Under the pieces are notes generated by a model. That model saw nothing but the letters and a program-made list of their open reading frames with translations, was not told where the DNA came from and ran no database searches. A DNA stretch of 64,000 bases from Patescibacteria group bacterium (GTDB lineage Bacteria > Patescibacteriota > Saccharimonadia > Saccharimonadales > 2-12-FULL-41-12): positions 443,004 through 507,003 of the forward strand of contig JBBTSC010000001.1 of the NCBI GenBank assembly GCA_038064875.1, in the 5' to 3' direction. Below are positions 10,213 through 53,023 of the stretch, piece after piece; the first letter of the stretch is position 1; every line of letters begins with the position of its first letter. Position numbers and translations under genes: made by a program.

Positions 10213-10257
10213 CTATTTATTATACTCGAATTAGGCCTAAATATCTTGTTGTATAAG

Positions 10258-10905
10258 TTATTGCTGGGTCGTCATGTAGTAGTAGCCTACGCCAAGAGCC
10301 ACGGCAACTATCAAAATAAGAACTGCCAGGATTGCCCCCATCTTGCTATTCGTAGCTGAGTCTTTTATTGGCAAGAAATATTCCTTGGATTCAATTTTTT
10401 CCTCTAAGGCTTTAAGTTTTTCTTCTCTCTCTTTATTGGCAAGCTCCTCTTGGCGCTTTGTGTTAACCTCCCCAGCTAGAGCATCAACTTCTGCGGATCC
10501 CTCGTCTGAATTGGTGGAGTCAGGAGTCTTGTCTGAAGACTCTTCTTTTTTGACTTCAGAGGATTCTTCTTTTTCGTCCTTTGGTTGCTCAGCTTCTTCT
10601 GGCTCTTTCTGCCCTTCAGGATCCTTTGACTCTTCTTTCTCTTCTGGTTTTGGAGGATCAACCTTCACCTCTACTTTTTCAGAATCAGACTCTGCCTCTT
10701 TTTCTGTAGATGGAGCTTCTGTTGACTGTATTGTTGCCTTTTTCTCTTCATCTGTTAGGGGTGCAATAACTTTCTTTGACTTCTCAACTATTGTGCTGTC
10801 TACGACTTCGTTACTATTGCCTACAACTACCGGACGTGAAGTTGCTGACTGAGCCACCTTGTCCGCATCCTTAACATCATCCATTGATTTATTTTTTTCT
10901 GCCAT
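10258..10905 (-). CDS. acidic Glu/Lys/Ser-rich, tail-anchored membrane protein
   Basis: Low-complexity E/K/S-rich body with a single C-terminal TM helix (MGAILAVLILIVAVALGVGYYY). Its start abuts the tpiA stop. Confidence 0.55.
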   Translation of the reverse strand: MAEKNKSMDDVKDADKVAQSATSRPVVVGNSNEVVDSTIVEKSKKVIAPLTDEEKKATIQSTEAPSTEKEAESDSEKVEVKVDPPKPEEKEESKDPEGQKEPEEAEQPKDEKEESSEVKKEESSDKTPDSTNSDEGSAEVDALAGEVNTKRQEELANKEREEKLKALEEKIESKEYFLPIKDSATNSKMGAILAVLILIVAVALGVGYYYMTTQQ

Positions 10906-11690
10906 TATTTCCTCTCAGACGCCTTTTTTGTTGCTACTTCTATAATTTTATTAAATTTATGATAATTCAAACTGGCAGAACCTGGCAAAGCCCCATCACA
11001 TCCTTCAATATCTAGATAGCCCCCGACTGTATGTTCGTCAACACTCCCACCGTATATAATGCGAGTTTTTTTGGCCGTAGCTTCACCATAAAGATCACTC
11101 ACTTGTTTGCGAATAAATTTTATGTCTTCTTTAATCACACTTGGTTTTGCGAGCTGGCCACCGAAGGTGCTAATAGCCCAAACAGGCTCGTAGGCTATAA
11201 CCACCTCAGAAACTTCTTCTGCTGTTAAGTTGGAAAGGGCGGTTGTCACTTGATCATGAAGAACCATTTTTGTTTCTTTATCTCTACGCTCTTCTGCTGT
11301 CTCCCCAACACAAAGAATCGGCGTAATCTTATTACGCACACTAGCAGCTACCTTATCACGTATCGTCTCAAGGCTCTCGCCAAAATAAATTCTTCGCTCT
11401 GAATGACCGATAATTACATAATCAACTAAATTTCTAAGTTGTGAGAAAGAGACTTCACCCGTGAATGCTCCCTCATCTTTGAAATACGCATCCTGAGCAC
11501 ACAATTTGATACGGCGTCGGTCTACTTCAAGTGAAAGCGGTTGGAGCGCTAAAAAGCCTGGCGCGACCACCACCTCAACATTCCGATGAGGCACTATATG
11601 CTGATACAGACGAGCCAACAAAGTGCTTGATTGATGCACGTTGTTAAACATCTTCCAGTTTCCGACAATTAATGTTTTTCTCCCACTCAT
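10905..11690 (-). CDS. tpiA: triose-phosphate isomerase
   Basis: GNWKMF, IGHSERR and AYEPVWAI motifs. Confidence 0.92.
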   Translation of the reverse strand: MSGRKTLIVGNWKMFNNVHQSSTLLARLYQHIVPHRNVEVVVAPGFLALQPLSLEVDRRRIKLCAQDAYFKDEGAFTGEVSFSQLRNLVDYVIIGHSERRIYFGESLETIRDKVAASVRNKITPILCVGETAEERRDKETKMVLHDQVTTALSNLTAEEVSEVVIAYEPVWAISTFGGQLAKPSVIKEDIKFIRKQVSDLYGEATAKKTRIIYGGSVDEHTVGGYLDIEGCDGALPGSASLNYHKFNKIIEVATKKASERK

Positions 11691-15023: not shown

Positions 15024-15725
15024 TTAGCTATTTCGACGAACAAGAGCTGAATAAGCTAATGTACTTAGACCAGTTACTCCAGCAAAGATAGCTAGAACAC
15101 TACCAGCACCAGTGTTTGGTAAGCTAGTTGGTGTTTTTGGAGTTTCTGGAGTCTTTGGAGTCTCACACTTTGGATAAACACCAGTTGTGCCTTCTGGGCA
15201 AACCTGGGTTTCAGGACAGCTTAGTTTTGCTTTAAACTGAACGAAACGTATCTGTTGTGTAGAAACACCGACGCTACCAACGTCAACACCAGCACCGATA
15301 ATACCATCAGGCAATGTGTTTAAGACGCTACTGTTAGCATCTAGAAGTTCTGTACTACCAGCAACGTAGCTAATAGTTGAACTTGTTGATACGTTTACTC
15401 CAGCAGTATCGGTAATAACACTTGGGTTACCGTTGCTTGAAGTAGTTGTAGCTAGTGAGCTAAAGCTAGTGTTTGTACCACTAGGCATAGTAGCCTTTAC
15501 GTTAACGTTGCCCAGAACTTCTGGACCACCGTTGTGCAAACGAATTTTGAACTGAATCACATCACATGGGTCAGCAGTGCTTGGGTCTGCATATGCACTA
15601 TTTTTAGTAAGGTTTTTTGAGTAGTAGATGTTTCCGCCGTCAACTTGAGCAGCAGAAGCAACACCACTTATTGCAACAGTTAATGTAACTGCAGCAACTG
15701 TGAAAAGTTTTGCAAATTTATTCAT
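15024..15725 (-). CDS. LPXTG-anchored surface protein with a DUF11-like repeat domain
   Basis: Signal peptide, then C-terminal LPNTG plus a hydrophobic stretch plus an RRNS tail (sortase signal). Also a PKTPETPKTP stalk. Confidence 0.8.
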   Translation of the reverse strand: MNKFAKLFTVAAVTLTVAISGVASAAQVDGGNIYYSKNLTKNSAYADPSTADPCDVIQFKIRLHNGGPEVLGNVNVKATMPSGTNTSFSSLATTTSSNGNPSVITDTAGVNVSTSSTISYVAGSTELLDANSSVLNTLPDGIIGAGVDVGSVGVSTQQIRFVQFKAKLSCPETQVCPEGTTGVYPKCETPKTPETPKTPTSLPNTGAGSVLAIFAGVTGLSTLAYSALVRRNS

Positions 15726-15952: not shown

Positions 15953-17125
15953 TTACTGGATGCGCGGGATGATCGTGGCTGTGAAGAACAGCGGATCGGC
16001 AGGTTTGCCTCCAGCGCTCGCGATTGCCTTGAACTCAGCAGTTCCGGGTGAGTCCGCCCACAGCGTTGCCGTGAAGCATTTTGACTTTGCCGGACATGGC
16101 TGATTGCTTCCGAGCACGGTGACTGGCTGAATGCCAGAAACGTGCGCGTATGGGTTGGGGCCAGTGGTCTGACCGTTTGTACCGGGAACGATCGAGAGGA
16201 TGTTGAAGGAGTCAATGTTGTCTCCGTCGGGATCCGTAACGATGAACCACAGTTGTCGGTTGTCACCGGCCATGGTGTGCGCGGTCATGCCGTCGTTGCT
16301 GATTGTTGGTGGACGATCACAGTCTCCATTGCTGGGGATTGGACGTCCGTCCGGGCACTTCGGCGTCGGTGGTGGTTCTGTTGGACCGCAGATGACTGTG
16401 CCACCTGGACTGTTCACGTTCGAACAGATGTTCGTGACGTTGCAGTTACCTCCTTGGTCGTTGTTATCTCCACCAACGTTGACGTTGCCACATTGGTTTT
16501 GAATCACAACGCATTGGTTGCCTTGCTTGATGGTGCCGGCCTGACAGTCTTGCGTGGTGGTCTGTGTCTGTACAACACATTGGTCGACGGAGTTAACCAC
16601 CTTGCCAGAGTCAGAGCAGACGATGGTCCCCTTGGGAGGCTTGGGCTTCTTCGGGGGCTTCGGCTTCTTCTTGCACGGACGTTTGACGAGCAAGTTTCCT
16701 ACCTGCTTGTTACCGCATCGTGCTTCGTAGCCGTGCTTCGTGCGTGCCTTCTTGCATGGCGCCGGAGCGTACTTCTCGGGAACCCAGTAGACGGATCCTT
16801 CCGGGATGTACTTCTTCGGGCCCTTGACCTTCTTGAACTTGCCACCTGTGCAGGTGAAGTTCGTCACGTAACCGCCCTTGACGACGATCGTTTTCACGAT
16901 GCCACCTTTGACGATTGAACGAGCCGAGCCGTCGAGGCCTGGTTTCTGACCGGTTGAACGTGCGACCTCGTCGAGGACGCCTTTGGACTTCCAGCCATTG
17001 ATGACCGAGGAAATTGACTTTCCTCCACCACAGGCTCCCGCTGCTGACGCAGATGAGACAAAAATCGTCCCAACCACAGCCATGCAGGCGAGCACCGCAG
17101 TCGTAGTTGCTATTACCTTACGCAT
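15953..17125 (-). CDS. secreted Cys/Gln/Asn-rich protein of unknown function, GC-rich (probably foreign) gene
   Basis: Longest ORF in a GC-rich block. Signal peptide MRKVIATTTAVLACMAVVGTIFVSSASA; SD GGAGGTG 7 nt upstream. The antisense track ORFs here are GC artefacts. Confidence 0.7.
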   Translation of the reverse strand: MRKVIATTTAVLACMAVVGTIFVSSASAAGACGGGKSISSVINGWKSKGVLDEVARSTGQKPGLDGSARSIVKGGIVKTIVVKGGYVTNFTCTGGKFKKVKGPKKYIPEGSVYWVPEKYAPAPCKKARTKHGYEARCGNKQVGNLLVKRPCKKKPKPPKKPKPPKGTIVCSDSGKVVNSVDQCVVQTQTTTQDCQAGTIKQGNQCVVIQNQCGNVNVGGDNNDQGGNCNVTNICSNVNSPGGTVICGPTEPPPTPKCPDGRPIPSNGDCDRPPTISNDGMTAHTMAGDNRQLWFIVTDPDGDNIDSFNILSIVPGTNGQTTGPNPYAHVSGIQPVTVLGSNQPCPAKSKCFTATLWADSPGTAEFKAIASAGGKPADPLFFTATIIPRIQ

Positions 17126-32979: not shown

Positions 32980-35378
32980 TGTTCTTGGCTCTCAAAATCA
33001 GCGACAGTCAAATTTATAACTCCACCTGCACCAATTTCTTGGCTGAGAACCTTTTTAGCAACAATGTTTTCAACATATCTCTGCGCCATGCGCCTCATAG
33101 GCCGGGCGCCAAGCATTGGGTCATACCCCTTATTGATCAACCATTTCTTGCCTGCTTCGTCGACGCTAACCTGAATTTTCTGTGGCTCAAGAGTTTTGTT
33201 GATTGAGCCAATTATAATACTAACTACCTGCACCAAATCATCCGGAGTTAGCGGTTCAAACAACACCACTTCGTCATATCTATTAACAAATTCTGGGGTA
33301 AATATTCTATCGTTGATCAGTTTTTCAACAATCTTATCCTCAGCATCTGGCTGATTAATTTCACCACTGGAGACCATTGATCTAATATCATTTGCCCCAG
33401 CGTTTGACGTGGCAATAATTATTGAATCTTTAAAAGAAACTTGTTTGTTATTTGAATCTTTCATGACTCCTTCGTCGAGCATTTGAAGCAACAGCCCTAG
33501 AACACTTGGATGTGCCTTTTCAATCTCATCTAGTAGCACCACACTAAATGGTTTCTTTCGCATTTGTCCTAGGAAACTAAGCTGATCGCCTTCGTTACCA
33601 GCGCTGACAAGTCTATTGACATCACTTGGTTCAACGAATTGGTTCATGTCTACTCTAACTATTGATGATTCATCCCCAAAATAAACTCTTGCTAAAGCCT
33701 TGGTAAGCTCTGTCTTACCAACACCAGTTGGGCCAATGAACAAGAATGTACCTACTGGTCGATCAGCAGACCCAACGCCACTCCTAGAACGACGTAGTGC
33801 ATCTGACACCGCTCTAATTGCCCGCTTTTGGCTAATAACATGCTGGCTGAGATTTTTCTCTAAATCGAGCAAGTTGGTTGCCTCTCCTGCCTGCGCAGTT
33901 TGCAGTTTTACACCTTTAGAACGCTCAAGGCTTAGCTTTATAACTGCATCTGTCACGTAACCATTTTCCGTATAGGCCGGGGCTTCTTCTAAAACTTTGA
34001 GGGCAGCACCTGGCATGGCCAGACTATCTTCATATCTTTTACCAAGCTTGTACGCCTCACGAAGAGCTTGATAAGTAAAAGTGCATTTATGTTTGAACTC
34101 AACCAAAAGTATTTGATTCTGCAAAATTCTGATAGAGTCTGATTCGTTTGCTTCAGGTAAATTAACAGACTGTATCTTGGATGTTAGTGAGCTTCCTCTC
34201 GCCTGCAAACTTTGCCACTGCTTTGGCGTTATCGCAAAAATCATTCTGACAGCGCCTGATTCAAGCGCCTGCGAGAGCACGTTAGACAGATCAACTGCTC
34301 CAACACCCTCACTGAAAAACACTTCTGCATTATCAAAAAACAAGATAATATTCTTGGCTTTATGTGCTTCGTTGATCATATGAATAACAAGCTGTTCGAG
34401 TTGACCGGGTCTGGTAGCCCTAGAAATCATAGCGCTGGCATCCAACATGACTACTTGCTTGTACCTGAGATTTTTTGGAGAAGAAGCGCTCAGGATTTGC
34501 TCGGCAAAAGCATATGCGGTAGTTGTTTTGCCAGATCCGTTTTCACCAACAATAGCTATAGATTTGTTTGTGTTGCTCATTGACTGAATCATGCCACCAA
34601 CCACCTGCTGATGAAGCGACGTGTCTTGGAAAAATCCATAGAGTTCAATTTCTCGCGAGATACTATAGCCAAAACTTTGAAGCACCGGCGTATAACCATA
34701 CGTCCAGTCACGAGCCAATCCTCCAAAATTCTTTTTTTCTCTTGCTTGTTTATGCTGATAACTTAGGCTACTCATCCAAAGCACTCCATTCTCAATATCG
34801 GCTCGTGACAACTTGAGTTTGTTCAGAAGACCCTCTGCGTCAGGCAAAGAAAGTATAAGGCCAGCCATGACAAGTTCCTGGGAATAGTAGCTCATGGATA
34901 GCTTGCTCCTGAGCGCCTCTGTATTGCGCCAAACCACGGCCTCACTGGAAGGATCTTTAGAGAGCATATTTTCAAAAATCTCTGTCGGTAACACAAATCT
35001 ATTTTGGAAAAAGTACCGAGCAGACAGTCTCTCTATCGCTTTCCAAATTAAATATGCAGACTGTGAGCCATTTTTCATATTTGCCAAAATCTGTTGATCA
35101 AGTACATCGTCTACTTTACCTGTCTTGTTGCCAATATTTTTATTTAACTGTGACAACTCACCTGCAGTCCAAAACCTAATTGACAAAGTTAACAGTCCTA
35201 CGCTCAAGAATAAGCCTGAAAGTTTCGGCATCGCATAGAGCAACATAAGTCCAAATAACAAGAAAGCCACTGCTGACAAATTCAAAATCTGGCGGAGGAA
35301 TTTATTATCAAGCGCTTTAAATATACGTGCTTTGACAGCTCTATCAGAATCTAGATTTAAATAATTACCCTGCACCAT
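32976..35378 (-). CDS. membrane-anchored double-AAA+ Clp/Hsp100-like ATPase
   Basis: Two N-terminal TM helices and Clp_N-like repeats. D1 has GENGSGKT and ILFFDNAE; D2 has GPTGVGKTE, LLDEIEKAH and GARPMRR. Start taken at ATG 35378. Confidence 0.85.
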   Translation of the reverse strand: MVQGNYLNLDSDRAVKARIFKALDNKFLRQILNLSAVAFLLFGLMLLYAMPKLSGLFLSVGLLTLSIRFWTAGELSQLNKNIGNKTGKVDDVLDQQILANMKNGSQSAYLIWKAIERLSARYFFQNRFVLPTEIFENMLSKDPSSEAVVWRNTEALRSKLSMSYYSQELVMAGLILSLPDAEGLLNKLKLSRADIENGVLWMSSLSYQHKQAREKKNFGGLARDWTYGYTPVLQSFGYSISREIELYGFFQDTSLHQQVVGGMIQSMSNTNKSIAIVGENGSGKTTTAYAFAEQILSASSPKNLRYKQVVMLDASAMISRATRPGQLEQLVIHMINEAHKAKNIILFFDNAEVFFSEGVGAVDLSNVLSQALESGAVRMIFAITPKQWQSLQARGSSLTSKIQSVNLPEANESDSIRILQNQILLVEFKHKCTFTYQALREAYKLGKRYEDSLAMPGAALKVLEEAPAYTENGYVTDAVIKLSLERSKGVKLQTAQAGEATNLLDLEKNLSQHVISQKRAIRAVSDALRRSRSGVGSADRPVGTFLFIGPTGVGKTELTKALARVYFGDESSIVRVDMNQFVEPSDVNRLVSAGNEGDQLSFLGQMRKKPFSVVLLDEIEKAHPSVLGLLLQMLDEGVMKDSNNKQVSFKDSIIIATSNAGANDIRSMVSSGEINQPDAEDKIVEKLINDRIFTPEFVNRYDEVVLFEPLTPDDLVQVVSIIIGSINKTLEPQKIQVSVDEAGKKWLINKGYDPMLGARPMRRMAQRYVENIVAKKVLSQEIGAGGVINLTVADFESQEQ

Positions 35379-35739
35379 CACCTCCAACGACCAACATTAA
35401 TATAGGCAGAATGATGATGGCGAGCGGGATAAAAGCCCAAGAGGCTAAAACAACAAAAAAACAAACGCTCAATAACGATATTATGATTCCTGCACCTATA
35501 AGTACAAATATCCTTATGATAAAACCAATTACCCTTGAAACAGTATTGTCCACTAACGCCTGGAAGAAATTACGAAGCGTAGCCTCTGTGTAGAGCTGTT
35601 TCCAGGGAGAGAACAGTGTTTTGAGCAATATAACAACTGAAAAACTCCTCAACAATGAAGATAATTTCTTGCTGTATTCGGATAAAATCCAAGCCCATCC
35701 AGCACCATACCACCACTTTAAATATAAGATAATTGCCAT
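35365..35739 (-). CDS. small polytopic membrane protein, overlaps the Clp-like gene start
   Basis: Track ORF, 124 aa, hydrophobic, with a 14-nt overlap with the downstream gene. Confidence 0.5.
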   Translation of the reverse strand: MAIILYLKWWYGAGWAWILSEYSKKLSSLLRSFSVVILLKTLFSPWKQLYTEATLRNFFQALVDNTVSRVIGFIIRIFVLIGAGIIISLLSVCFFVVLASWAFIPLAIIILPILMLVVGGDGAG

Positions 35740-35906
35740 AACTGGTAGTATTTTAACACTTATGGTTATCTATGTTAATTTGCATTAGAATATTATGTGC
35801 TGTAAAGTATTATCTGTGAAAACATTTGTAACAACCAGCAATCTCATTCTCCTCAGTCAAAAACTGATGGCTTGAGCGTGTAGTTACAAAAATAATTTAG
35901 AAAAAC

Positions 35907-35938
35907 AAAATCCCGTCTCAAGTCAGATGGGATTTTTT
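35907..35938 (+). terminator. orphan intrinsic terminator immediately upstream of an SD (candidate attenuator)
   Basis: AAAATCCCGTCT pairs with AGATGGGATTTT (one G:U) around a 6-nt loop, with six Ts. AAGGAG and ATG 35957 follow within 19 nt. There is no upstream plus-strand gene. Confidence 0.5.
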
Positions 35939-35956
35939 AATATATAAGGAGAAAAT

Positions 35957-36229
35957 ATGGAAGGCTCAATAACCGAAAGTTTAAGATCACAAAATATAGA
36001 ACCAAGTAGGTGCAATGTACCGGATGAAGCCACTGTCAGAAAATACGGCGCATTTACTTTCACTATGTACACTGGTCCTGGGTCTATCGAGCCCATGCGT
36101 GATTTTTTTGTGAATTTTCCAAATGAGGAAGATTTTGAACAGATGCTTCAAGAAAGATTGGGCGAATGGGCCCAAGAAAATGTAGTTAATAACCCCGATG
36201 GTAACTTTTGGAGAGACAAGCCCGCATAA
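35957..36229 (+). CDS. hypothetical protein (90 aa)
   Basis: Track ORF with a strong SD (AAGGAG). Confidence 0.5.
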   Translation: MEGSITESLRSQNIEPSRCNVPDEATVRKYGAFTFTMYTGPGSIEPMRDFFVNFPNEEDFEQMLQERLGEWAQENVVNNPDGNFWRDKPA

Positions 36230-36275
36230 GGTGTTAATTTGAAATTTGCCGAGATTTGAAGGATAATTAACATCT

Positions 36276-37178
36276 ATGGAAAGTTTTCTACCGAAATGCT
36301 ATTTTCAGGGCAAAATTATTAATTTTAAAGATGCCAAAATCTCGGTAGCAACCCACGCACTACATTATGGAACTGGAGCTTTTGGCGGACTCAGAGCAAC
36401 CGTAGACACAAAAACCAAACAGGTCGTACTTTTTAGATTAAAAGATCACTGCAAACGCCTAAGTAAAAGCGCCAAACTCCTAGGCTACGATTTATCACCT
36501 AAATTCATTGAAGAAAAAATTACCGAATTCGTAAAAGCCAATCCAACTAAAAAAGATTATTATATTAGGCCTTTGATTTATGTATCTGATCTTGGCATAG
36601 CACCTAGACTACATAATGTATCCTATGATTTTCTGATATATGGGTTACCAATGGGCGATTACCTCAACAAGGGAGGTGTGAAAGTTTGTTTTAGCTCATG
36701 GGTGCGCGGTGAAGATAGAAGCCTTCCCCTAAGAGGAAAAATAACGGGCACTTACGTCACAAGTGCGCTTTCAAAAACAGAAGCTCACGCTAGAGGCTTT
36801 GATGAAGCAGTCTTGCTCAATTCACAAGGGAAAATTGCTGAGGCAAGTGCTATGAATATATTTATTGTCAGAGATGGTGAGCTTATTACCCCTTCAGTTA
36901 ATCAAGATATTTTAGAAGGGATTACTCGTGACAGCATCATGAAGATTGCAGAAAATCTTGGCTACAAAGTGACTGAACGTGCTGTTGATAAATCAGAACT
37001 GATTATTGCCGATGAAGTTTTCCTTACCGGAACCGCTGCACGAATAACTCCTGTTAAAAAAATTGAAGGTTATAGCTTGCCAAGAAACAATCCCGTGACA
37101 AAAGCTCTTTCTAAAGAATTCGCAAATATATTTGAAAACCCAAATTCACAATACTCAGAGTGGCTGACTAAGATATAA
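36276..37178 (+). CDS. ilvE: branched-chain amino acid aminotransferase (class IV PLP enzyme)
   Basis: THALHYGTGAFGGLRA signature. 300 aa. Confidence 0.85.
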   Translation: MESFLPKCYFQGKIINFKDAKISVATHALHYGTGAFGGLRATVDTKTKQVVLFRLKDHCKRLSKSAKLLGYDLSPKFIEEKITEFVKANPTKKDYYIRPLIYVSDLGIAPRLHNVSYDFLIYGLPMGDYLNKGGVKVCFSSWVRGEDRSLPLRGKITGTYVTSALSKTEAHARGFDEAVLLNSQGKIAEASAMNIFIVRDGELITPSVNQDILEGITRDSIMKIAENLGYKVTERAVDKSELIIADEVFLTGTAARITPVKKIEGYSLPRNNPVTKALSKEFANIFENPNSQYSEWLTKI

Positions 37179-37184
37179 AAGTGA

Positions 37185-37904
37185 CTACCTGCCCAGAGAC
37201 CTGGCAACTTTGCGTGCTTCAACAGCCAACTGATCATCAACTAATTTTGGCTGATAGTTGCCGAATTTTCTGACAACTGCTTTTTCTATTAACCAGTCTG
37301 CTATAGCTGGATTTTTAGGCAAAAGCGATCCGTGGAGATAGCTACCAATTACGTTTTTATACAGAGCACCTTCTGATTTGTCTTTGCCGTTATTGCCTGC
37401 TCCTCTGACTACTTTCGCCAGCGCCTTTTGATCAGCATCAAGAACAGTCAACCCACTATGATTTTCATAGCCAACAATCTCGCCAAATAAATCACTCTTT
37501 GTCACGATATTACCAATCAATCTCTTTGGTCCACCGACTGTCTGAGCTCCAAAAATACCTATTCCTTCTATCCTATCGCCTTGTGCCGTTTCAAAATACC
37601 GGCCAAAGAGCTGATAGAGACCACAGATCATCAACATTGGCACTCCATCGTCAGCAAGTTTGTGTAAATTTTTACTTATTTTAAGAAGATCGTCACGAAT
37701 TTTATCCTGGCCAGAATCCTGTCCCCCGCCACCGACAATGATGTCCACTTCTTTAGGAAAAGGTTTCCCGGGATGGTGCTCTAAAATTTCAACGCTATAT
37801 CCCTGCCATTCGAGTCGTTTTTTTAAGGTCAGGGCATTTCCCCAGTCACCATATATATTCATCTCCGAGGGATAGAGTTGTAATAGTCTAATTTGCTTGG
37901 TCAT
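37185..37904 (-). CDS. gatD: lipid II isoglutaminyl synthase, glutamine amidotransferase subunit (GatD, CobB/CobQ-like GATase)
   Basis: LYPSEMNIYGDWGN, ICGLYQLFG (Cys nucleophile) and a 4-nt overlap with murT. Confidence 0.85.
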   Translation of the reverse strand: MTKQIRLLQLYPSEMNIYGDWGNALTLKKRLEWQGYSVEILEHHPGKPFPKEVDIIVGGGGQDSGQDKIRDDLLKISKNLHKLADDGVPMLMICGLYQLFGRYFETAQGDRIEGIGIFGAQTVGGPKRLIGNIVTKSDLFGEIVGYENHSGLTVLDADQKALAKVVRGAGNNGKDKSEGALYKNVIGSYLHGSLLPKNPAIADWLIEKAVVRKFGNYQPKLVDDQLAVEARKVARSLGR

Positions 37905-39169
37905 AATACCCTCTCTATATCTGTCTTTTTTCGAAGCAGTTGCCGGAATTCAAGCATTGCAGTATAGGTGCAAAAGATTCTCTTGGGTTTTGTTGGTTTA
38001 GACTCAATAAATTGGTTTAGCGCTTTTGAAAGCTTTGGCTCAACTAAATTTACATGAATATCATCGTACTGAAGTCTAAGAGCCATATCATAAGCACGAA
38101 TTCCGCTTACTGTATTGACCAAATGGCCCAGTGAAGTAAAATCAACATCCCAAAGCCACGACATATCACGCCCATCAGCATAATTATCATTTATTGCGAT
38201 CATGGTCTCCACATTGCTGGAGTTGAATGATTTAAGACCGAGACGAAATCCAGCTGGATTTTTTACCAGCACGAGCTCAAGTGGCTGGCCATTTACGTGG
38301 ACAACCTCGCCTCGCCCAAAAGCAGGCGTTATATCCTCTAAACGTTTTGCGAGAGCATCAAGGTTAATATCATCTTCACAGACCGCTTTTACTAAACAAA
38401 GTGCCGCTGCGATATTGAAAATATTGTAGATACCGGTTATCTTCAGATTAACTGCCAGTGGCTTATTATCAATATATATTTCTGCCTGACTATCTTTAAA
38501 ATCACTCAGTATGACTTCTGCTTCGACCGATGGCTGGTCTGATTTTTTGACACCGTACATCTCATCATCATTTGGAAAATTCTCCTGTAATTTGGGGTCA
38601 ATGCCAAAAAACTTTATTTTTTTGTCACCAAGATCGTCTGCTATTTTCCTAAGCCGAGCATCCTCGCGATTTATAACAACTGTGTCTTTTGTCGCTAGAG
38701 CAATCTTCTGAAGCATACCGGCCGTTACGTCTATCTCACCAAACCGATCGAGCTGATCACGCATGACATTTAGAAGCAAGCTATACCTCGGCTTTATTTC
38801 GCTCACAAAATGTACTGCGTGAGCTTCATCAAGTTCAAGTACGGCGATGTCTGCATCAAGATTGCCATTTAGATCCATCTCGCTAATCAGAGCTGATATC
38901 ACTCCTCTCTTAAAATTACTGCCTGTCGAATTAGAGAACACCTTAAAACCTTGGCTCTCTAAAAGTTCTGTGACTATTTTTGAAGTTGTTGTCTTACCAT
39001 TCGTTCCACTAATGACAATAACGCCATGAGGTAATGTACCAAGTGCTTTTTTTAGGAAAGTTTTGTCTATCTTTTCAACAGCCAAACCAGGCAAAGCTGA
39101 TCCGCCACCCCTGAGTCGTGACGCTACTCGAACGCCTTTACCTATTAATACGGTTGATTTCTTGACCAT
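37901..39169 (-). CDS. murT: lipid II isoglutaminyl synthase, Mur-ligase-like subunit (MurT)
   Basis: P-loop GTNGKTTT, Mur-ligase middle domain and a DUF1727-like C-terminus (DGRDMSWLWDVDF). Confidence 0.85.
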   Translation of the reverse strand: MVKKSTVLIGKGVRVASRLRGGGSALPGLAVEKIDKTFLKKALGTLPHGVIVISGTNGKTTTSKIVTELLESQGFKVFSNSTGSNFKRGVISALISEMDLNGNLDADIAVLELDEAHAVHFVSEIKPRYSLLLNVMRDQLDRFGEIDVTAGMLQKIALATKDTVVINREDARLRKIADDLGDKKIKFFGIDPKLQENFPNDDEMYGVKKSDQPSVEAEVILSDFKDSQAEIYIDNKPLAVNLKITGIYNIFNIAAALCLVKAVCEDDINLDALAKRLEDITPAFGRGEVVHVNGQPLELVLVKNPAGFRLGLKSFNSSNVETMIAINDNYADGRDMSWLWDVDFTSLGHLVNTVSGIRAYDMALRLQYDDIHVNLVEPKLSKALNQFIESKPTKPKRIFCTYTAMLEFRQLLRKKTDIERVL

Positions 39170-39271
39170 GTCAATAATTATAACAGTAAGCTACTACACA
39201 AATTACTAGAAAAAATATGTTATGATATATTTTGCTATTTCTGCAAAATCTATACTCCTGAGGAGGAGACA

Positions 39272-40243
39272 ATGCTAGATAATACGCACCTCGACAATTC
39301 AAGAGGAGCTGTTGTTGATGTCCAGCCTAACAGCTGGGTGCACGACGTTGTCACTCTTTTGGGAGTGACTCTGCCGATCGTGGCAGTTCTGATCGGAGCG
39401 ATCAGCCTGACAGATGGGCTTCCACCGCTCTACGTCATCGTGATGATGGTCGTCTTTCGCTACTTGACTGCCTGGGGAATAACGATTGGTTTTCACCGAT
39501 TGTTCACTCATCGCAGTTTCGAAGCAAGACGTCCTGTCGTAATCATGCTCGCAGTCCTGGGATCACTGGCTCTTGAAGGAGCTATCATCGCATGGGTTGC
39601 CGATCATCGACGACATCACGACTTCACGGACGAGCCGGAAGATCCACACTCCCCGCACGTTTCAACAAGTGGCGAATTCAAAGATCTGGCATGGGGAACA
39701 TTCCGCGGTCTTTGGCACGCCCATTGGGGATGGCTTTTCACCGTTGGTTCATCCAACGAAGGAAGGTACGCCAACGATCTGGTTAAAGACCCCACAATCC
39801 GCCTGATCAGCAAGCTGTTCCCGCTCTTTGCGCTTCTAACGATAGCCATTCCAGTAGTTTTGGGATATGCAATCGACGGGACGCAAGGTATGTGGGATTG
39901 TCTGATTTGGGCTGTAGGAGTCAGAATCTTCTGGGTTCACCACGCAACCTGGTTCGTCAACTCAATCGGCCATATGTACGGCAAACGTCCGTTTGTTCCG
40001 CGCACAAAAGAAGATAAGAGCACTAACAACGCCTTTGTTGCGCTCGTAGCCGAGGGAGAAGGATGGCATCACAACCATCACGTCTTTCCTTTGTCTGCAA
40101 AGCACGGCATTCTTCCCGGTCAAATCGATGTTTCATACCGCATCATCAAAGCCCTCGAAAAAGTCGGCCTCACAAGGAATGTGGACATGCACGTCCCGTC
40201 CGAGGAAAAAATTTCTGCCAAACTCGCCGAAGCCAAAAGCTGA
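39272..40243 (+). CDS. membrane acyl-CoA (stearoyl-CoA-type, DesA3-like) fatty acid desaturase; GC-rich gene
   Basis: Three His boxes (HRLFTH, HRRHH, HHNHH) and TM helices. GC is 50-60% in the sampled lines. Confidence 0.85.
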   Translation: MLDNTHLDNSRGAVVDVQPNSWVHDVVTLLGVTLPIVAVLIGAISLTDGLPPLYVIVMMVVFRYLTAWGITIGFHRLFTHRSFEARRPVVIMLAVLGSLALEGAIIAWVADHRRHHDFTDEPEDPHSPHVSTSGEFKDLAWGTFRGLWHAHWGWLFTVGSSNEGRYANDLVKDPTIRLISKLFPLFALLTIAIPVVLGYAIDGTQGMWDCLIWAVGVRIFWVHHATWFVNSIGHMYGKRPFVPRTKEDKSTNNAFVALVAEGEGWHHNHHVFPLSAKHGILPGQIDVSYRIIKALEKVGLTRNVDMHVPSEEKISAKLAEAKS

Positions 40244-40348
40244 CGCTTGAGTCGAACCGGACCAAAAGTCTGAAGGCAGTAACCCCCCGGTTATATAATT
40301 TATAAAATTATTAATCGGGGGGAGCAGTACAAAATTATTTTAGTTAAG

Positions 40349-40383
40349 AAAAAAGACCACCTGAAATGGTGATCTTTTTTGTT
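40349..40383. terminator. bidirectional hairpin with flanking A- and T-runs
   Basis: AAAAGACCACC pairs with GGTGATCTTTT (one C/A mismatch) around a 6-nt loop. Confidence 0.5.
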
Positions 40384-40500
40384 TGGTCGGGGTGAAAGGG
40401 GCTGCCTCTGGCACGTTTGCCAGAAGACTGGCTTCACGAGCAAACCTCCGACTATTGCCTGCCATAGGCAGTCAAGTCGAAGAACCGACTCTTTTCTCCA
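40384..40500. other. GC-rich hairpin-dense element (about 117 nt) whose minus-strand 3' end duplicates the tRNA-Pro 3' end
   Basis: The 16-nt TGGTCGGGGTGAAAGG at 40384-40399 is identical to 40538-40553. Hairpins at 40419-40432, 40459-40471 and 40475-40490. Terminator-like hairpins sit on both sides. Confidence 0.35.
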
Positions 40501-40501
40501 A

Positions 40502-40528
40502 CAAAAAAATACCCCGTCAAACGACAGG
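40502..40528 (-). terminator. intrinsic terminator after tRNA-Pro
   Basis: On the minus strand: CCTGTC-GTTT-GACGGG followed by GTATTTTTTT. Confidence 0.55.
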
Positions 40529-40537
40529 ATATTTTTC

Positions 40538-40613
40538 TGGTCGGGGTGAAAGGACTCAAACCTTCGACCTCTCGGTCCCAAACCGAGCGCGCTATCAACT
40601 GCGCCACACCCCG
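40538..40613 (-). tRNA. tRNA-Pro (anticodon UGG), CCA encoded; unusual D and T loops
   Basis: Hand-folded: anticodon arm CTCGG-TTTGGGA-CCGAG. T loop is TTTGAGT (U56) and D loop is AGTTGATA (A19). Confidence 0.88.
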
Positions 40614-40720: not shown

Positions 40721-42193
40721 GTGGTAAAGGATTATCATACACTCGTGGCTATAGACCATAAATTAAGTGAAAAATGTGCAGTATTCGGAATTTACGGATC
40801 CGAGGACGCAGCACGAACAGCTTACTTCGGTCTCTGGGCTCTCCAACATCGTGGCCAAGAAGGCTCTGGGATAGTCAGTAGTGACGGGCAACAAATCCAC
40901 CGCTTTGCAGACTTTGGGTTAGTCGCACACGTATACACAGAAGAAGATCTTTCAGCACTTCCTGGATCAATCGCAATAGGTCACAACCGATATGCAACTT
41001 CTGGTGAAACCGATGGAGACTATCTACAACCTTTCCTGGACAATAAGAATAGTTTTGCTGTAGCTCACAATGGCAACTTGCCAGATTGTAGCAAGCTTAT
41101 AGAATTTCTAAAGCAAAATAATCTCTGGGCTGAGAACCTAAATGACTCACAGATGATGCACCGGGCAATCGGACACTTTATGAGCCAAGGATCATCACTC
41201 CCTGAAAGCATAAAACAAGCATACCCCTTACTAACAGGGGTTTTTTCATGCGTTGCTATGGACAAGAACCAACTAGTAGCTTTCCGCGATGAGTGCGGAA
41301 TACGTCCTCTCTCTATAGGTCATCTAGAAAATGGTAGTTACGTCGTCGCATCGGAGACTTGTGCTTTTGAAACTATCGGTGCAACCTATGTTCGTGACGT
41401 GGCACCTGGAGAAATAGTCTTTATTGATGATAATGGTATCAACTCTATCCAGGCTGTCACCGCCAACCCCAAATTTGATATTTTTGAATTTGTATATTTT
41501 GCGCGACCTGATAGCGTGATCATGGGTAAAAGCGTCAGTACAGTACGCGAAAATCTTGGCAAACAAATGGCAAAAGAATTTAACGTAACTGCAGATGTTG
41601 TTATACCGGTTCCGGATTCATCTGTCCCAGCAGCACTTGGTTATGCAGAGCAAAGTGGTATCAAATTCAGCATGGGACTTGTCAAAAACAGATACATCAA
41701 TAGAACTTTTATCCAACCTACCGATGCCCTCCGAAAAAGAGATGTAAAAATGAAACTCAACCCTGTTATTGACATGATAAAGGGCAAACGAGTTATCTTG
41801 GTAGATGATTCGATCGTCCGCGGAACAACTATGAGACAAGTTATTGAAATGCTCCGTTCAGCTGGTGCTACAGAAGTGCATCTTGCTATTAGCTCCCCCC
41901 CTATTCGCTATCCTGACTTTTACGGCATAAACACCCCTCTTCAAAGTGAACTGATAGCTTCTAAAATGAGCGTCAAAGAAATGTGTGATAACCTCGGTGC
42001 AGACTCACTTAATTTCCTATCTATTGACGGGATGATTGCCTCTACAGGGCTCCCTGCAGACGGATTCTCTTTGTCATTTTTTGACGGGGTTTATCCTATT
42101 GATATCGGGAGCCGAGCTAAGGAAGTAGCTCAGATAGCAGAAGATTTTGACTCCACTCAAGAGACAAGTAATCTGGTAGAATCTCACGCCTAG
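40721..42193 (+). CDS. purF: amidophosphoribosyltransferase
   Basis: GTG start. Has a propeptide then CAVFGIYG (N-terminal Cys nucleophile) and the PRPP motif VILVDDSIVRGTT. Confidence 0.9.
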   Translation: MVKDYHTLVAIDHKLSEKCAVFGIYGSEDAARTAYFGLWALQHRGQEGSGIVSSDGQQIHRFADFGLVAHVYTEEDLSALPGSIAIGHNRYATSGETDGDYLQPFLDNKNSFAVAHNGNLPDCSKLIEFLKQNNLWAENLNDSQMMHRAIGHFMSQGSSLPESIKQAYPLLTGVFSCVAMDKNQLVAFRDECGIRPLSIGHLENGSYVVASETCAFETIGATYVRDVAPGEIVFIDDNGINSIQAVTANPKFDIFEFVYFARPDSVIMGKSVSTVRENLGKQMAKEFNVTADVVIPVPDSSVPAALGYAEQSGIKFSMGLVKNRYINRTFIQPTDALRKRDVKMKLNPVIDMIKGKRVILVDDSIVRGTTMRQVIEMLRSAGATEVHLAISSPPIRYPDFYGINTPLQSELIASKMSVKEMCDNLGADSLNFLSIDGMIASTGLPADGFSLSFFDGVYPIDIGSRAKEVAQIAEDFDSTQETSNLVESHA

Positions 42194-42202
42194 GATGGGT
42201 CT

Positions 42203-42856
42203 ATGAGTCATCCGAAAATCGCAATCTTAGCATCAGGATCTGGGACAACCGCTGAAGCCTTTGTCTTAGCTGGAGTTAATGGCACTATAGATACTCAAGT
42301 GGAGCTTGTTATATGTAGCAACAGATCTGCTGGTATATTTGAGAGGATTGAAAATTTAAACAAGATGCATGGACTGAACATCAAATGTATCTACATCGGT
42401 AAAGATAGCCATCCAGATCCCAAAGGTGAAGAAGAAGCATTACTTAACATGTTAAGTAACTCAAATGTTGATGCTATTGTTCTGATGGGTTACATGAAAA
42501 AGATTGGGCCAAAGTTAGTGAAAGCTTTTGGTTGGCGGAACGACTTCACCAGCCCATATCAAGCAAAAATGCTAAATACCCACCCGGGGCTTTTACCTGA
42601 ATCAGCAGGAATGTATGGCAGGAACGTTCAGCAACACACACTAGACCTGGACCTACCTTTTAGCGGGCAAACCCTCCATGTAGTATCTGAGCAATACGAT
42701 GAAGGACCAATCATTGCAGAACACAAAGTTGCTGTGGCATCTGGTGAAACTGCAGACACTTTATTTGCGAAAGTTCAGAAAGCAGAAAAAGAATACTTAC
42801 CAAAAGATGTTGATACCTTCATAAAGAAAAGGTTAGAGTATTTAGAGGAGAATTGA
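42203..42856 (+). CDS. purN: phosphoribosylglycinamide formyltransferase
   Basis: ILASGSGT, NTHPGLLP and the DEGPIIAEHKV pattern. Confidence 0.85.
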   Translation: MSHPKIAILASGSGTTAEAFVLAGVNGTIDTQVELVICSNRSAGIFERIENLNKMHGLNIKCIYIGKDSHPDPKGEEEALLNMLSNSNVDAIVLMGYMKKIGPKLVKAFGWRNDFTSPYQAKMLNTHPGLLPESAGMYGRNVQQHTLDLDLPFSGQTLHVVSEQYDEGPIIAEHKVAVASGETADTLFAKVQKAEKEYLPKDVDTFIKKRLEYLEEN

Positions 42857-44127
42857 TGAGCAAGACTTTATTAGTTATTGGTAGCGGTGGCCGTGAGCAT
42901 GCATTGATCTGGAAACTCGCCCAGTCGCCTAAAGTTGGCAAAATCTATTGTGCGCCTGGAAACGGGGGAATTTCAGAGATTGCTGAGATTGTACCAATAG
43001 GGATGCTAGAAACAGACAAGTTGGTAGATTTTGCAAAGAAAAATTCTATCGATTTCACAGTAGTAGCACCTGATGACGCGCTGGCGGCAGGGGTAGTCGA
43101 TGCTTTTGAATCAGCGGGCTTGAGAGCATTTGGACCGACAAAATCAGCTTCACAAATAGAAGCCTCTAAAGCATTCTCTAAAGACCTCATGCAAAAAAAT
43201 AATATACCAACAGCAAATTATATGAACTTCTCTGATGCTGAACAGGCAAAAAAATATCTAGAAACCTGCAAATACCCGACAGTTGTAAAAGCCAGTGGAC
43301 TCGCTGCCGGAAAAGGCGTAATCATATGCGAAGACTACGGCGCTGCAACAAAAGCTATAGATGAAATTATGGGTGACAAAATATTTGGAAGCTCTGGCGA
43401 TACTATAGTCATAGAAGATTTTTTAGTTGGCCAAGAAGTCTCTATCCACGCGCTCAGTGACGGTAAGAAATTCGTTCTTTTCCCCACTTCACAAGACCAC
43501 AAACAAGTTTTTGACGGTGACAAAGGACCAAATACCGGTGGCATGGGAGTCATTGCTCCAATAGATTGGGTTACGGAAGCCAATCTCAACACCGTTAAAG
43601 AAAAGATAGTCCAGCCAGTGCTTGACGGTCTACGTAATGAAAATGCTAATTTTGTTGGTTGCCTGTATCCAGGGCTGATGATCAATGGTGATGATGTTAA
43701 TACGGTTGAATTCAATTGTAGATTTGGCGACCCAGAGACTGAAGCCTACATGCGACTTTTCGACGGAGATCTATATGAGGTGTTTGAATCTTGTGTAGAT
43801 GGCAACCTAGATCCTAGTGCCGTCAAATGGCAAGATGGATATGCGGTCACAATCATCCTGGCTTCTGGAGGATATCCAGCAAAATACGAAACAGGGCTAC
43901 CCATTTCTGGTATTGATAAAGCTCAGAAAATTGAAAATGTAATTGTCTTTCATGCCGGAACTAAAAAAACAGATTCTGGTTTTGTAACCGCAGGTGGAAG
44001 AGTCCTAAATGTAACTGCAACCGGTGCTACTTTGGATCAAGCACTAGCGACCGCCTACAAAGCTGTTGATTTGATTCATTTTGAGGGTATGCACTACCGC
44101 ACCGACATCGGCCGACGTCCAAGTTAG
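42853..44127 (+). CDS. purD: phosphoribosylamine--glycine ligase
   Basis: VIGSGGREHAL, an ATP-grasp core and a 4-nt overlap with purN. Confidence 0.9.
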   Translation: MMSKTLLVIGSGGREHALIWKLAQSPKVGKIYCAPGNGGISEIAEIVPIGMLETDKLVDFAKKNSIDFTVVAPDDALAAGVVDAFESAGLRAFGPTKSASQIEASKAFSKDLMQKNNIPTANYMNFSDAEQAKKYLETCKYPTVVKASGLAAGKGVIICEDYGAATKAIDEIMGDKIFGSSGDTIVIEDFLVGQEVSIHALSDGKKFVLFPTSQDHKQVFDGDKGPNTGGMGVIAPIDWVTEANLNTVKEKIVQPVLDGLRNENANFVGCLYPGLMINGDDVNTVEFNCRFGDPETEAYMRLFDGDLYEVFESCVDGNLDPSAVKWQDGYAVTIILASGGYPAKYETGLPISGIDKAQKIENVIVFHAGTKKTDSGFVTAGGRVLNVTATGATLDQALATAYKAVDLIHFEGMHYRTDIGRRPS

Positions 44128-45138: not shown

Positions 45139-45762
45139 CTACTTTTGCAATAGATCAGCTATATAAGGTTGTATTTGTTGGAACAGCCAGTCATGGCCAT
45201 CAGTGTTAGGATGGGTGCCATCATCGATCATACTAGCCCAACCAATTTTCTTTGCCTCTGAATTAAGATCCAAATATTTTACTTCTTTTTCAGAACATAG
45301 ATTTTGAATACTAACGTTATAAGAATCAATAGTCTCATTAAAATATGAAATATCTTCCCAGGACACAGGCGTTGATCTTAATTCATCAACTGGCAATATT
45401 GAACATATAAATACATATTTCGCTTCAACTTTCGCCATATCAATTAATCGAGAAAAATCCGTAACAAATGCAGATTTGTCTGTTACCGAATCTGGATTTT
45501 TTCCCTGTTTGTAAGTGTCATTTGTTCCTACGGCCAATATAATCACTGAATCATCAAAACTATCCCAACGTTTAGTCCTAGCTTCTGTTTCATGTTTGAA
45601 TCTTTTTACAACGTGCTCGACTTTATCTCCGCTTATTCCAAGATTAAATATCGATGCATCTTTTTGATTTTTTAAAACATAATTTTGGAGTCGACCAACC
45701 CATCCTCCATTTGTATCGTGATAACCCTGTGCGATACTATCACCAAAGACAATTACCCTCAC
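45139..45762 (-). CDS. SGNH/GDSL-family hydrolase
   Basis: GDS block (VFGDSIAQG), GTND and DGTHP. GTG start with SD GGAGGT. Confidence 0.75.
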   Translation of the reverse strand: MRVIVFGDSIAQGYHDTNGGWVGRLQNYVLKNQKDASIFNLGISGDKVEHVVKRFKHETEARTKRWDSFDDSVIILAVGTNDTYKQGKNPDSVTDKSAFVTDFSRLIDMAKVEAKYVFICSILPVDELRSTPVSWEDISYFNETIDSYNVSIQNLCSEKEVKYLDLNSEAKKIGWASMIDDGTHPNTDGHDWLFQQIQPYIADLLQK

Positions 45763-51767: not shown

Positions 51768-51892
51768 TAGCTACTATTTTCTTTTGATTGTTCATGTAAC
51801 TAACATTGTACACCTACTCAGAGAACGGAAATATTGTGTTTTTTGTGATAAAATTAGTTTCAGTCCTCAAAAATTTCAACAAGGAAAATTCA

Positions 51893-53023
51893 ATGACAAA
51901 GAAATCTATTAAAGTAGCCATTGTAGGTGTTGGTAACTGTGCCAGTTCACTCTACCAAGGATTCGCATATTACACAGGTAAGAAGGGAGATAATATCCCA
52001 GGACTTATGTTCGCCGACATCGGCGGATACAGACTAGATGACATCGAAGTGGTCGCAGCATTTGATGTAGATAGCCGTAAAGTTGGCAAGCCCATAGGAG
52101 AAGCTATCTTTGCCCTACCTAACTGTGCTCGTCAGTTCTCAAAAGTGCCAAAGGGTCCAAAAGTACAGATGGGACACATTCTTGACGGCGTATCAAGCCA
52201 CATGCTTGAGCAACCCGAAGACGAAGGATTTAGAATCGCCAAACAAAAGCCAGTTGATATAGTCAAAGTTCTTAAAGATACTAAAGCGGATATATTAATC
52301 AACTACCTGCCTGTGGGGTCTCAAGAAGCAAGCGAATATTATGCTCAGTGTGCTATCGACGCGGGAGTTATGTTCCTCAACTGTATTCCTGTGTTTATCG
52401 CATCTGATCCAAAATGGGAAAAGAAATTTATTAACGCAGGACTCGCACTTATTGGTGACGATATGCGAAGTGCTCTTGGTGCCAGCATTATGAGCCAAGT
52501 TCTTCAAGAACTAGCCTTTGACCGAGGATTTGAAGTTGATTTTCATCAACAAATTAATATTGGCGGAAATACTGACTTCAACAACATGATGGTTCAATCT
52601 CGCCTCGCTAGCAAAAAGAAATCTAAAGAAAACGTTATCCGCGCCCAGAACGAAATTCGTGGAATTCCTGTGGCAAAAAACAGTCTGTTTGCAGGACCAA
52701 GCACTTACCTTCCATACCTGGAAGACAACAAAGTTGCTTACTTTAACATCAGACTTCGTGGATTTGGTGATGCACCAGTCACAATCGACGCGAAATTGTC
52801 TGTTCAAGATTCAGAAAATTCTGCTGGAGTTGTTGTAGATGCAATTCGCTATCTCAAAGTTGCTCAGGAGCTTGGAGTAGTTGGAGCTCTTCGTGGCCCA
52901 AGTGCTTGGACACAAAAAACGCCTCCAGTACAAATGATGTACGCCGACGCCAAGGCTGAATGTGAATCTCTAGCACAACGCAAAGCTAACGGCACTATTG
53001 CTTCACAGATCAAGAAAAAATAA
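51893..53023 (+). CDS. ino1: myo-inositol-1-phosphate synthase
   Basis: VAIVGVGNCASSL Rossmann start and the overall MIPS pattern. Start trimmed to ATG 51893 (AAGGAAAA upstream). Confidence 0.85.
   Translation: MTKKSIKVAIVGVGNCASSLYQGFAYYTGKKGDNIPGLMFADIGGYRLDDIEVVAAFDVDSRKVGKPIGEAIFALPNCARQFSKVPKGPKVQMGHILDGVSSHMLEQPEDEGFRIAKQKPVDIVKVLKDTKADILINYLPVGSQEASEYYAQCAIDAGVMFLNCIPVFIASDPKWEKKFINAGLALIGDDMRSALGASIMSQVLQELAFDRGFEVDFHQQINIGGNTDFNNMMVQSRLASKKKSKENVIRAQNEIRGIPVAKNSLFAGPSTYLPYLEDNKVAYFNIRLRGFGDAPVTIDAKLSVQDSENSAGVVVDAIRYLKVAQELGVVGALRGPSAWTQKTPPVQMMYADAKAECESLAQRKANGTIASQIKKK

Follow-up and report, generated by a model that had tools for sequence, protein, structure and literature searches.

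What would a bacterium that presumably cannot make its own membrane lipids do with a fatty-acid desaturase, and how would it have come by one? Bacteria of the Candidate Phyla Radiation (CPR), Saccharibacteria included, are described as unable to make membrane lipids and as depending on their hosts for them (PMC8406219, PMC10939385). The question is raised by a stretch of 64,000 nucleotides (nt) of contig JBBTSC010000001.1, hereafter the window, from a saccharibacterium (Patescibacteria) of oxic Hainich groundwater. On its forward strand, at 39272..40243, lies an intact open reading frame (ORF) of 323 amino acids with an ATG start, which encodes a membrane di-iron desaturase of the SCD1 type. 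An earlier note on this DNA, made from the letters alone, had recognized the ORF, proposed that it was horizontally acquired and suggested that it could remodel imported acyl chains. We find it probable that the gene encodes a functional SCD-type desaturase, that it was acquired horizontally as a single-gene cassette and that its product desaturates host-derived chains.

The protein belongs to the SCD1 family of first desaturases

The three histidine (His) boxes are those read earlier, namely HRLFTH at residues 75-80, HRRHH at 112-116 and HHNHH at 266-270. They follow the patterns HX4H, HX2HH and HX2HH in canonical order and spacing. The protein scores 64.2 bits against the Pfam family FA_desaturase (PF00487; cut-off 29.7), and its only sequence relatives in the PDB are mouse and human SCD1 (4ymk, 4zyo; E 1e-26). 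In the alignment, HRLFTH of the desaturase pairs with HRLWSH of SCD1, DHRRHH with DHRAHH, NSIGH with NSAAH and HHNHH with HNYHH. The NxxxH motif of the fourth transmembrane helix (TM4) and the tunnel tryptophan are both present, the segment ATWFVNSIGH being aligned to ATWLVNSAAH (W227, N230, H234). These three residues, together with H75, H80, H112, H115, H116, H266, H269 and H270, are invariant across 48 homologues.

An AlphaFold model of the desaturase (predicted local distance difference test 85.9, predicted template modelling score 0.84) is helical in its N-terminal half. The only significant PDB matches in a structure search with this model are again SCD1 entries, with template modelling scores of 0.69-0.75 and E 1e-11. 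Because of the Pfam score, the SCD1-only PDB matches, the invariant ligands and tunnel tryptophan and the modelled fold, we assign the protein to the SCD1/Ole1/DesC family of first desaturases, with a predicted four-helix di-iron fold. An NCBIfam assignment was dropped: the sole match, the equivalog NF049918 ('DesA family fatty acid desaturase'), reaches 85.3 bits, far under its cut-off of 400. The label 'DesA3-like', given earlier, is not borne out either. The desaturase matches SCD1 in sequence and in fold, and DesA3 lies in a separate cluster, FE4 (PMC5037126); the two are set apart through this published clustering and the SCD1 match. GenBank holds an identical protein, MEK7626225.1, encoded on a 766-kb contig, as 'MAG: acyl-CoA desaturase [Patescibacteria group bacterium]' (MAG, metagenome-assembled genome; CoA, coenzyme A). 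The name is therefore already in place and the enzyme type is well known; it is the host that is unusual.

Two regions of the alignment depart from SCD1. Its 'WARDH' reads 'WVADH' in the desaturase, and its basic stretch 'VRKHPAVKEKGGK', located after the second His box, is largely deleted. Both are presumably CoA-contacting regions of SCD1. Since the basic loop is partly missing in the alignment, a head group other than CoA is hinted at, and we lean slightly towards an acyl-lipid rather than an acyl-CoA substrate.

The gene is compositionally foreign to the window

The content of guanine and cytosine (GC) is 51.5% over the whole gene and 41.6% over the window, and the rise begins and ends at the ORF boundaries. 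The flanks are AT-rich, as had been described: 28% GC in the upstream intergenic region and 37% in the downstream stretch. The 60-nt lines sampled at the time (39361, 39601 and 39901) recompute to exactly 60%, 60% and 50%. GC at third codon positions (GC3) is 0.543, against 0.357±0.041 (maximum 0.433) in the 56 other ORFs of the window. When the same protein is re-coded with the native codon usage of the window, GC3 amounts to 0.388±0.026 and never reaches 0.543 in 2000 simulations, so that the excess goes beyond amino-acid content. The codon-bias distance is 0.453, against 0.259±0.031 simulated. The codon-usage test that the earlier note had proposed thus singles out the desaturase as a strong outlier.

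The gene had also been called a second compositional island, and this holds: only one other gene of the window is GC-rich, at 15953-17125 on the minus strand. This ORF of 390 amino acids (56% GC, GC3 0.65) has a signal-peptide-like N-terminus, a Cys/Pro/Lys-rich composition and a strong Shine-Dalgarno sequence, and no Pfam domain is found in its product. Only 14 homologues, at 33-63% identity, occur in 5.8 billion protein clusters, and the one labelled match is from Saccharibacteria; an actinobacterial origin of this gene was rejected for these reasons. The adjoining ORF, 15024-15725 (minus strand), is the second-strongest codon-usage outlier, yet its GC3 is low (0.25); it has a weak DUF11 match.

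The nearest relatives are distant and actinobacterial

Apart from the desaturase, the window carries housekeeping genes of the kind usual in Saccharibacteria, for glycolysis, purine and murein synthesis, the type IV pilus and RecA. A search with MurT, the product of the adjacent gene, leads to Saccharibacteria genomes, of which RIFCSPHIGHO2_12_FULL_41_12 is the closest at 72%. Contigs with the identical gene and neighbours come from Hainich groundwater well H51 and from other samples.

Within the same 5.8 billion clusters, the desaturase has its own cluster at 90% identity or above, composed of eight full-length members (322-324 amino acids). The next matches, full length as well, are 43-55% identical. 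An exhaustive HMMER scan of 1.84 billion representatives also places it in a 50%-identity cluster of its own, the next representative being 49% identical. No homologue between 55% and 90% identity is found among about 15 billion proteins.

All near matches with a taxon label are from Actinomycetota (14 of 14), eight of them from Solirubrobacterales. The unlabelled ones lie on contigs of 52-73% GC with an ordinary free-living, non-CPR gene content. In a neighbour-joining tree with 200 bootstraps, from which a Nonomuraea outgroup was left out, the eight-member query clade (100%) falls inside a clade of 127 sequences (98%) whose labelled members are Actinomycetota. Plasmid-borne paralogues of Polaromonas, Nostoc, Rhodococcus, Pseudonocardia and Ralstonia are outside this clade. 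The placement of the query within it is weak, with bootstraps of 36-54%. The description 'actinobacterial-type' therefore stands for an affinity, seen in all labelled matches and in the 98% clade at only 43-55% identity, and does not extend to a donor that could be named. With homologues that reach only about 50% identity at best, the assignment of a donor phylum depends on the 14 labelled sequences and the neighbour-joining tree. The transfer may have been early enough for the gene to ameliorate substantially; otherwise, the donor belongs to a lineage that has yet to be sampled.

The gene is also missing where vertical descent would place it. In the closest species of the genome collection (L007), whose flanking proteins are 72-85% identical in amino acids, the gene order is the same, purN–purF–tRNA-Pro … MurT–GatD–IlvE–Clp, and the slot holds three unrelated genes and no desaturase. 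None is present within 10 kb of the other MurT loci examined. Two close relatives (L088 and L089, 98-99% nt identity) are arranged as the window is, and a more distant one (L087, 89%) has the desaturase with an additional 2.8-kb insert of three genes. The comparison of presence and absence across related genomes, another check proposed earlier, thus shows the gene to be patchily distributed. Composition, absence from L007, a variable tRNA-adjacent slot and the lack of a homologue in the lineage together make horizontal acquisition well supported, in keeping with what had been proposed.

The desaturase occupies a variable slot at a tRNA 3' end

A tRNA-Pro gene (UGG), identified by ARAGORN and Rfam at 40538..40613 on the minus strand, faces the desaturase slot with its 3' end. 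Its position beside purF is the same in L007 and L087. An exact 16-nt duplicate of this end, TGGTCGGGGTGAAAGG, is found at 40384..40399; it is att-like and marks the edge of the variable slot. The window contains two exact copies (40384-40399 and the tRNA end at 40538-40553), for a chance expectation of 0.27 matches at up to three mismatches. No third copy exists upstream of the desaturase at up to three mismatches. The duplicate is kept in L001, L002, L087, L088 and L089 and is absent from L007. Its interpretation as a decayed second tRNA was rejected, as the similarity stops at 16 nt and both ARAGORN and Rfam are blank.

In L087, the insert abuts the 16-nt copy exactly. From this we conclude that the slot of the desaturase is evidently variable and that an att-like copy of the tRNA end forms its boundary. 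The insert itself (L087 6049-8882) takes up exactly the place of 43 nt of the window, past the desaturase and before the tRNA-Pro repeat. Its three extra genes encode a DUF7192 protein, an AAA_5 ATPase and an NrtR-type winged-helix protein, and it may be a defence-type cassette.

The two repeat copies are separated by a 138-nt spacer (40400..40537, minus strand), which includes the tRNA-Pro terminator hairpin and is conserved in L087. A 120-nt segment, 40384-40503, read on the minus strand, folds at -47.5 kcal/mol (z = -3.0), its ends being paired in an acceptor-stem-like manner. Rfam gives no match for 40384-40537. This segment could be left over from an integrated element, or it could be a small RNA.

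A second lineage carries a different desaturase

Among near matches outside the query's own cluster, the protein P0021 has the most AT-type amino-acid composition. Its gene lies on contig L091, directly upstream of murF, whose best labelled relatives are from Saccharibacteria (84-85%). On L106, tRNA-Ala(GGC) is followed after 70 bp by the gene of P0013, a protein 77% identical to P0021; homology to relatives breaks off 11 nt past this tRNA. In L104 and L105, where MurF is 91% and 84% identical, tRNA-Ala is followed directly by murF, with no desaturase. P0021 and P0013 are 47-48% identical to the query and 57% to a sequence from a 67%-GC organism; their genes have 49-52% GC, against 43% in the flanks. 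On this evidence, two Saccharibacteria lineages carry different single-gene desaturase cassettes just past tRNA 3' ends, both missing from close relatives.

The gene is maintained and may have spread within its clade

Compared with L087, the ratio of nonsynonymous to synonymous substitution rates (dN/dS) of the desaturase is about 0.19, against 0.004-0.10 for the neighbouring core genes. This value indicates purifying selection. Identity to L087 at third codon positions is 0.84 in the desaturase and 0.70-0.74 in five genes of the left flank. Because the desaturase exceeds its flanks in this respect, its alleles would share a more recent ancestor than the flanks do, which suggests a later spread within the clade. 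Divergence from L087 also jumps at the tRNA-Pro boundary: to the left (34295-40340) nucleotide identity is 89%, with a synonymous rate (dS) of 0.5-0.9, and to the right (40721-44127, purF to purD) it is 79%, with a dS of 1.2-1.7. Such an abrupt change indicates that recombination among related Saccharibacteria has made the region a mosaic.

Expression signals

A Shine-Dalgarno sequence, GAGGAGGAG, can be read at 39260..39268 on the plus strand and ends 3 nt before the ATG. It is a strong one, and strong ones are in the minority here: a 5-mer is found in only 10 of the 58 ORFs of the window as called. The earlier view that promoter and Shine-Dalgarno sequence look native stands in part. The latter is real; the former, TTGCTA (39232-37) with TATACT (39252-57), was rejected as a native promoter, since its spacer is 14 nt and a consensus scan finds no sigma-70-type site. 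Native character as such is not established. The divergent intergenic region between MurT (minus strand) and the desaturase (plus strand), 39170..39271, has 28% GC and contains two candidate promoter elements. The alternative candidate is an extended -10, TG-A-TATATT, read at 39223-39231, and a similar TGATACAAT precedes the desaturase genes of L091 and L106. Between the window and L087, the region shares 95-98% identity, and its elements may act as promoters.

On the 3' side, an untranslated stretch (40283..40383, plus strand) contains a CCCCCCG...CGGGGGG hairpin at 40283-40322 and a terminator-like hairpin followed by a T-run at 40354-40383. A strict terminator scan missed the latter because of one mismatch in its stem. 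In L087, positions 40341-40383 are replaced by the 2.8-kb insert.

Redox partners and lipid genes

No rubredoxin, ferredoxin, cytochrome b5 or thioredoxin motif was found in a scan of all ORFs of at least 35 amino acids in the 64 kb, and no lipid-synthesis gene or redox partner was recognized by Pfam in 40 other ORFs. The statement that no partner oxidoreductase or lipid gene is adjacent is therefore confirmed, the neighbours being MurT/GatD on one side and tRNA-Pro/purF on the other. Elsewhere in the family, a rubredoxin gene precedes the gene of one homologue by 80 bp, and a TetR regulator is encoded downstream of two others; rubredoxin is thus a possible source of electrons for the bacterial desaturases of this clade. 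On L102, from a 67%-GC organism, the rubredoxin gene occupies 9724-9921 and the desaturase gene 10001-10972; the assembly prefixes JBFOM*/JBFON* are adjacent to that of L087.

The only lipid-related gene in the Pfam scans is a GDSL lipase/acylhydrolase at 45139-45762 (minus strand), about 5 kb away. It is only 31% identical to the L087 gene at the same position, for 85-99% in the flanking genes; at this slot, lipid-hydrolase genes seem to be replaced or to turn over fast. A further ORF, 51806-53023 (plus strand), matches the myo-inositol-1-phosphate synthase domain; this enzyme is usual in the lipid and mycothiol biology of Actinomycetota. Closer to the desaturase, MurT/GatD (37185-39169, minus strand) has a native composition, and MurT is 57-61% identical in amino acids to its Arthrobacter/Pseudarthrobacter counterparts and 56-63% to those of most other Saccharibacteria. 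As MurT is about equally similar to both groups, an old exchange of MurT/GatD between Actinomycetota and Saccharibacteria, beside the desaturase, is suggested.

Well H51 is oxic, with 2.7 mg/L O2 (PMC8672522). A search of the literature library for fatty-acid desaturases in Saccharibacteria or Patescibacteria returned nothing relevant, one apparent match being a carotenoid desaturase, and a paper on horizontal transfer in New Zealand groundwater does not mention desaturases (PMC12455944).

Proposed origin and role

We propose that the ancestor of a small clade of groundwater Saccharibacteria gained the desaturase horizontally, as a single-gene cassette. The relatives of the gene are found in Actinomycetota, to which the known hosts of Saccharibacteria belong, and its donor would come from an unsampled lineage. 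The point of entry of the cassette would have been the variable slot that lies between purF and MurT, where tRNA-Pro has its 3' end. Saturated C16/C18 chains are the substrates of this family, whose enzymes use O2 and two electrons to form a cis double bond in them, typically at Δ9. In the present case the two electrons would come from a general redox carrier, and the enzyme would put the first, Δ9-type cis double bond into C16/C18 chains. The saturated chains, which the cell would be unable to make, would be taken from the host, and their desaturation may tune the membrane fluidity of the epibiont itself in cold, oxic groundwater. The most likely role is thus O2-dependent Δ9-type desaturation of host-derived acyl chains; the remodelling of imported chains, as put forward in the earlier note, is plausible.

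Several observations weigh against this account. The repeat pair encloses 138 nt only and leaves the desaturase beyond its outer copy, and no integrase or mobility ORF is found between MurT and purF; because of these two facts, the mechanism of insertion is inferred. The best homologues are only about 50% identical and the inner nodes of the tree are weak. An electron donor, acyl-CoA synthetase, acyltransferase or regulator is found neither in linkage with the gene nor elsewhere in the 64 kb, and a rubredoxin or TetR gene adjoins some homologues. The dN/dS of the desaturase is above that of the neighbouring core genes.

How else could the gene have come to this place? A misjoining of an actinobacterial fragment to a Saccharibacteria contig, in assembly or binning, would fit a GC jump that falls exactly on the gene boundaries. 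It is scarcely credible, given that identical junctions occur in at least seven independently assembled contigs from different samples, assemblers and pipelines (ENA, Logan, NCBI) and in relatives at 98% and 89% nt identity whose flanks have co-diverged; moreover, contamination would need a source, and in no sequenced organism does a copy exceed 55% identity. Very improbable too is an old Saccharibacteria gene, inherited vertically, lost in most lineages and of odd composition through selection or chance. Such a gene would explain why the desaturase is fixed at one locus in a clade diverging by up to about 11% nt, and why two further Saccharibacteria desaturases share its neighbour-joining subgroup (bootstrap 36%). 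However, these two belong to a second lineage and a different locus, with a protein nearer to that of the 67%-GC organism (57%) than to the query (47%). The absence from the syntenic site of the nearest species and from other Saccharibacteria MurT loci, the gap between 55% and 90% identity and a GC3 excess that amino-acid content does not cause all speak for acquisition instead. The immediate donor is less certain. It could be another saccharibacterium or CPR bacterium, a phage or an unsampled lineage of moderate GC, the actinobacterial signal reflecting the deep ancestry of the family, and we regard this as somewhat unlikely. Identity to any Actinomycetota sequence is indeed 55% at most, and with 51.5% GC the gene lies well below most near homologues (60-73%) and next to a 52%-GC contig, L100. 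The excess of third-position identity to L087 over the flanks suggests spread by recombination within the clade, and most horizontal transfer into groundwater Patescibacteria was reported to come from other Patescibacteria (PMC12455944). On the other hand, L091 and L106 are the only CPR members among the near matches examined, and they are no closer to the query than the actinobacterial ones. The gene order of L100 (rplS, rnhB, ..., yraN) is, moreover, Actinomycetota-like, in that we take this order to be typical of the phylum.

A different doubt concerns function: the gene may have been acquired without giving a working Δ9 desaturase in its present host, whether as a silent or decaying passenger deprived of an electron donor or as an enzyme for another substrate or position. 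The missing redox partner and lipid genes within 64 kb point in this direction, as does a dN/dS 2-40 times that of the neighbouring genes, and so do the largely deleted 'VRKHPAVKEKGGK' and the change from 'WARDH' to 'WVADH', if these are the CoA contacts we assume. We nevertheless think it unlikely. The frame is intact and the metal ligands are kept in every variant, dN/dS is far under 1, a strong Shine-Dalgarno sequence and a terminator are present, and a desaturase was gained independently by a second lineage. The tunnel residue W227, equivalent to W262 of SCD1 (PMC5037126), is invariant. A functional, horizontally acquired desaturase acting on host-derived chains is thus the reading that we retain. 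A wider version of it can be put forward as a tentative idea, in which environmental Saccharibacteria would repeatedly capture stand-alone SCD-type cassettes at tRNA 3' ends and desaturate intact host-derived membrane lipids in place, with a general instead of a dedicated electron donor; the captures would be at tRNA-Pro here and at tRNA-Ala in the second lineage.

If this wider version is true, an obligate lipid scavenger would have gained its own oxygen-dependent control of membrane fluidity, and the desaturase would be the first enzyme for lipid remodelling to be defined in the CPR. Selected and independently re-acquired as it appears to be, it is a concrete, cloneable candidate for the remodelling of host-derived lipids in the CPR. 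It would also imply that these cells use O2 in oxic groundwater.

Comparison with known systems

The closest characterized structures are those of SCD1 (4YMK, 4ZYO, 6WF2), in a family of first desaturases that includes yeast Ole1. The His boxes and the TM4 asparagine and histidine correspond one to one, the tunnel tryptophan is shared, the folds agree (template modelling score 0.69-0.75), and the N-terminal half of the model is helical as in the SCD1 membrane domain. The O2-dependent, two-electron Δ9 chemistry is presumably the same. Unlike SCD1, to which it is only 24-26% identical, the query largely lacks the basic loop after the second His box and resides in a bacterial host, and no cytochrome b5/b5-reductase system is seen for it in the window.

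Cyanobacterial DesC and plant ADS (cluster FD-C, PMC5037126) are SCD-type as well, DesC being the prokaryotic, single-domain form. These Δ9 desaturases act on intact glycerolipids and have lost the positive charge that binds CoA (PMC5037126). For a lipid scavenger, such an acyl-lipid mode would be fitting. A Nostoc homologue shares about 42% identity with the query, although the Nostoc and Polaromonas sequences fall outside the query's 127-sequence clade (98%). Cyanobacterial desaturases receive their electrons from ferredoxin, whereas none is found in the query's window.

DesA3 of M. tuberculosis belongs to the front-end cluster FE4 and makes oleate and palmitoleate from acyl-CoA (PMC5037126). 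DesA3 (Rv3229c) with Rv3230c is the function that the earlier note had in mind, and DesA3 is an actinobacterial membrane desaturase. It has a dedicated NADPH oxidoreductase, Rv3230c, next to it, whereas no oxidoreductase adjoins the query. The nearest relatives are instead uncharacterized 'acyl-CoA desaturase' genes of Solirubrobacterales and other Actinomycetota, 43-55% identical over the full length, equally long and with the same invariant residues. They have 60-73% GC and a GC3 of 0.75-0.96, against 51.5% and 0.54 for the query, and several of them are single genes next to a TetR or rubredoxin gene; the Saccharibacteria copy has neither.

As a locus, finally, the slot can be compared with tRNA-linked islets and integrative elements. 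It differs from them in having no integrase or mobility gene and in that its repeats enclose 138 nt and not the desaturase. It resembles them in its position at a tRNA 3' end, its 16-nt direct repeat, its variable content and its atypical composition, and the desaturase after tRNA-Ala offers a second case. Its relatives being found in the phylum that includes the known hosts, it would be a clean example of single-gene capture beside tRNA genes in a very small genome.

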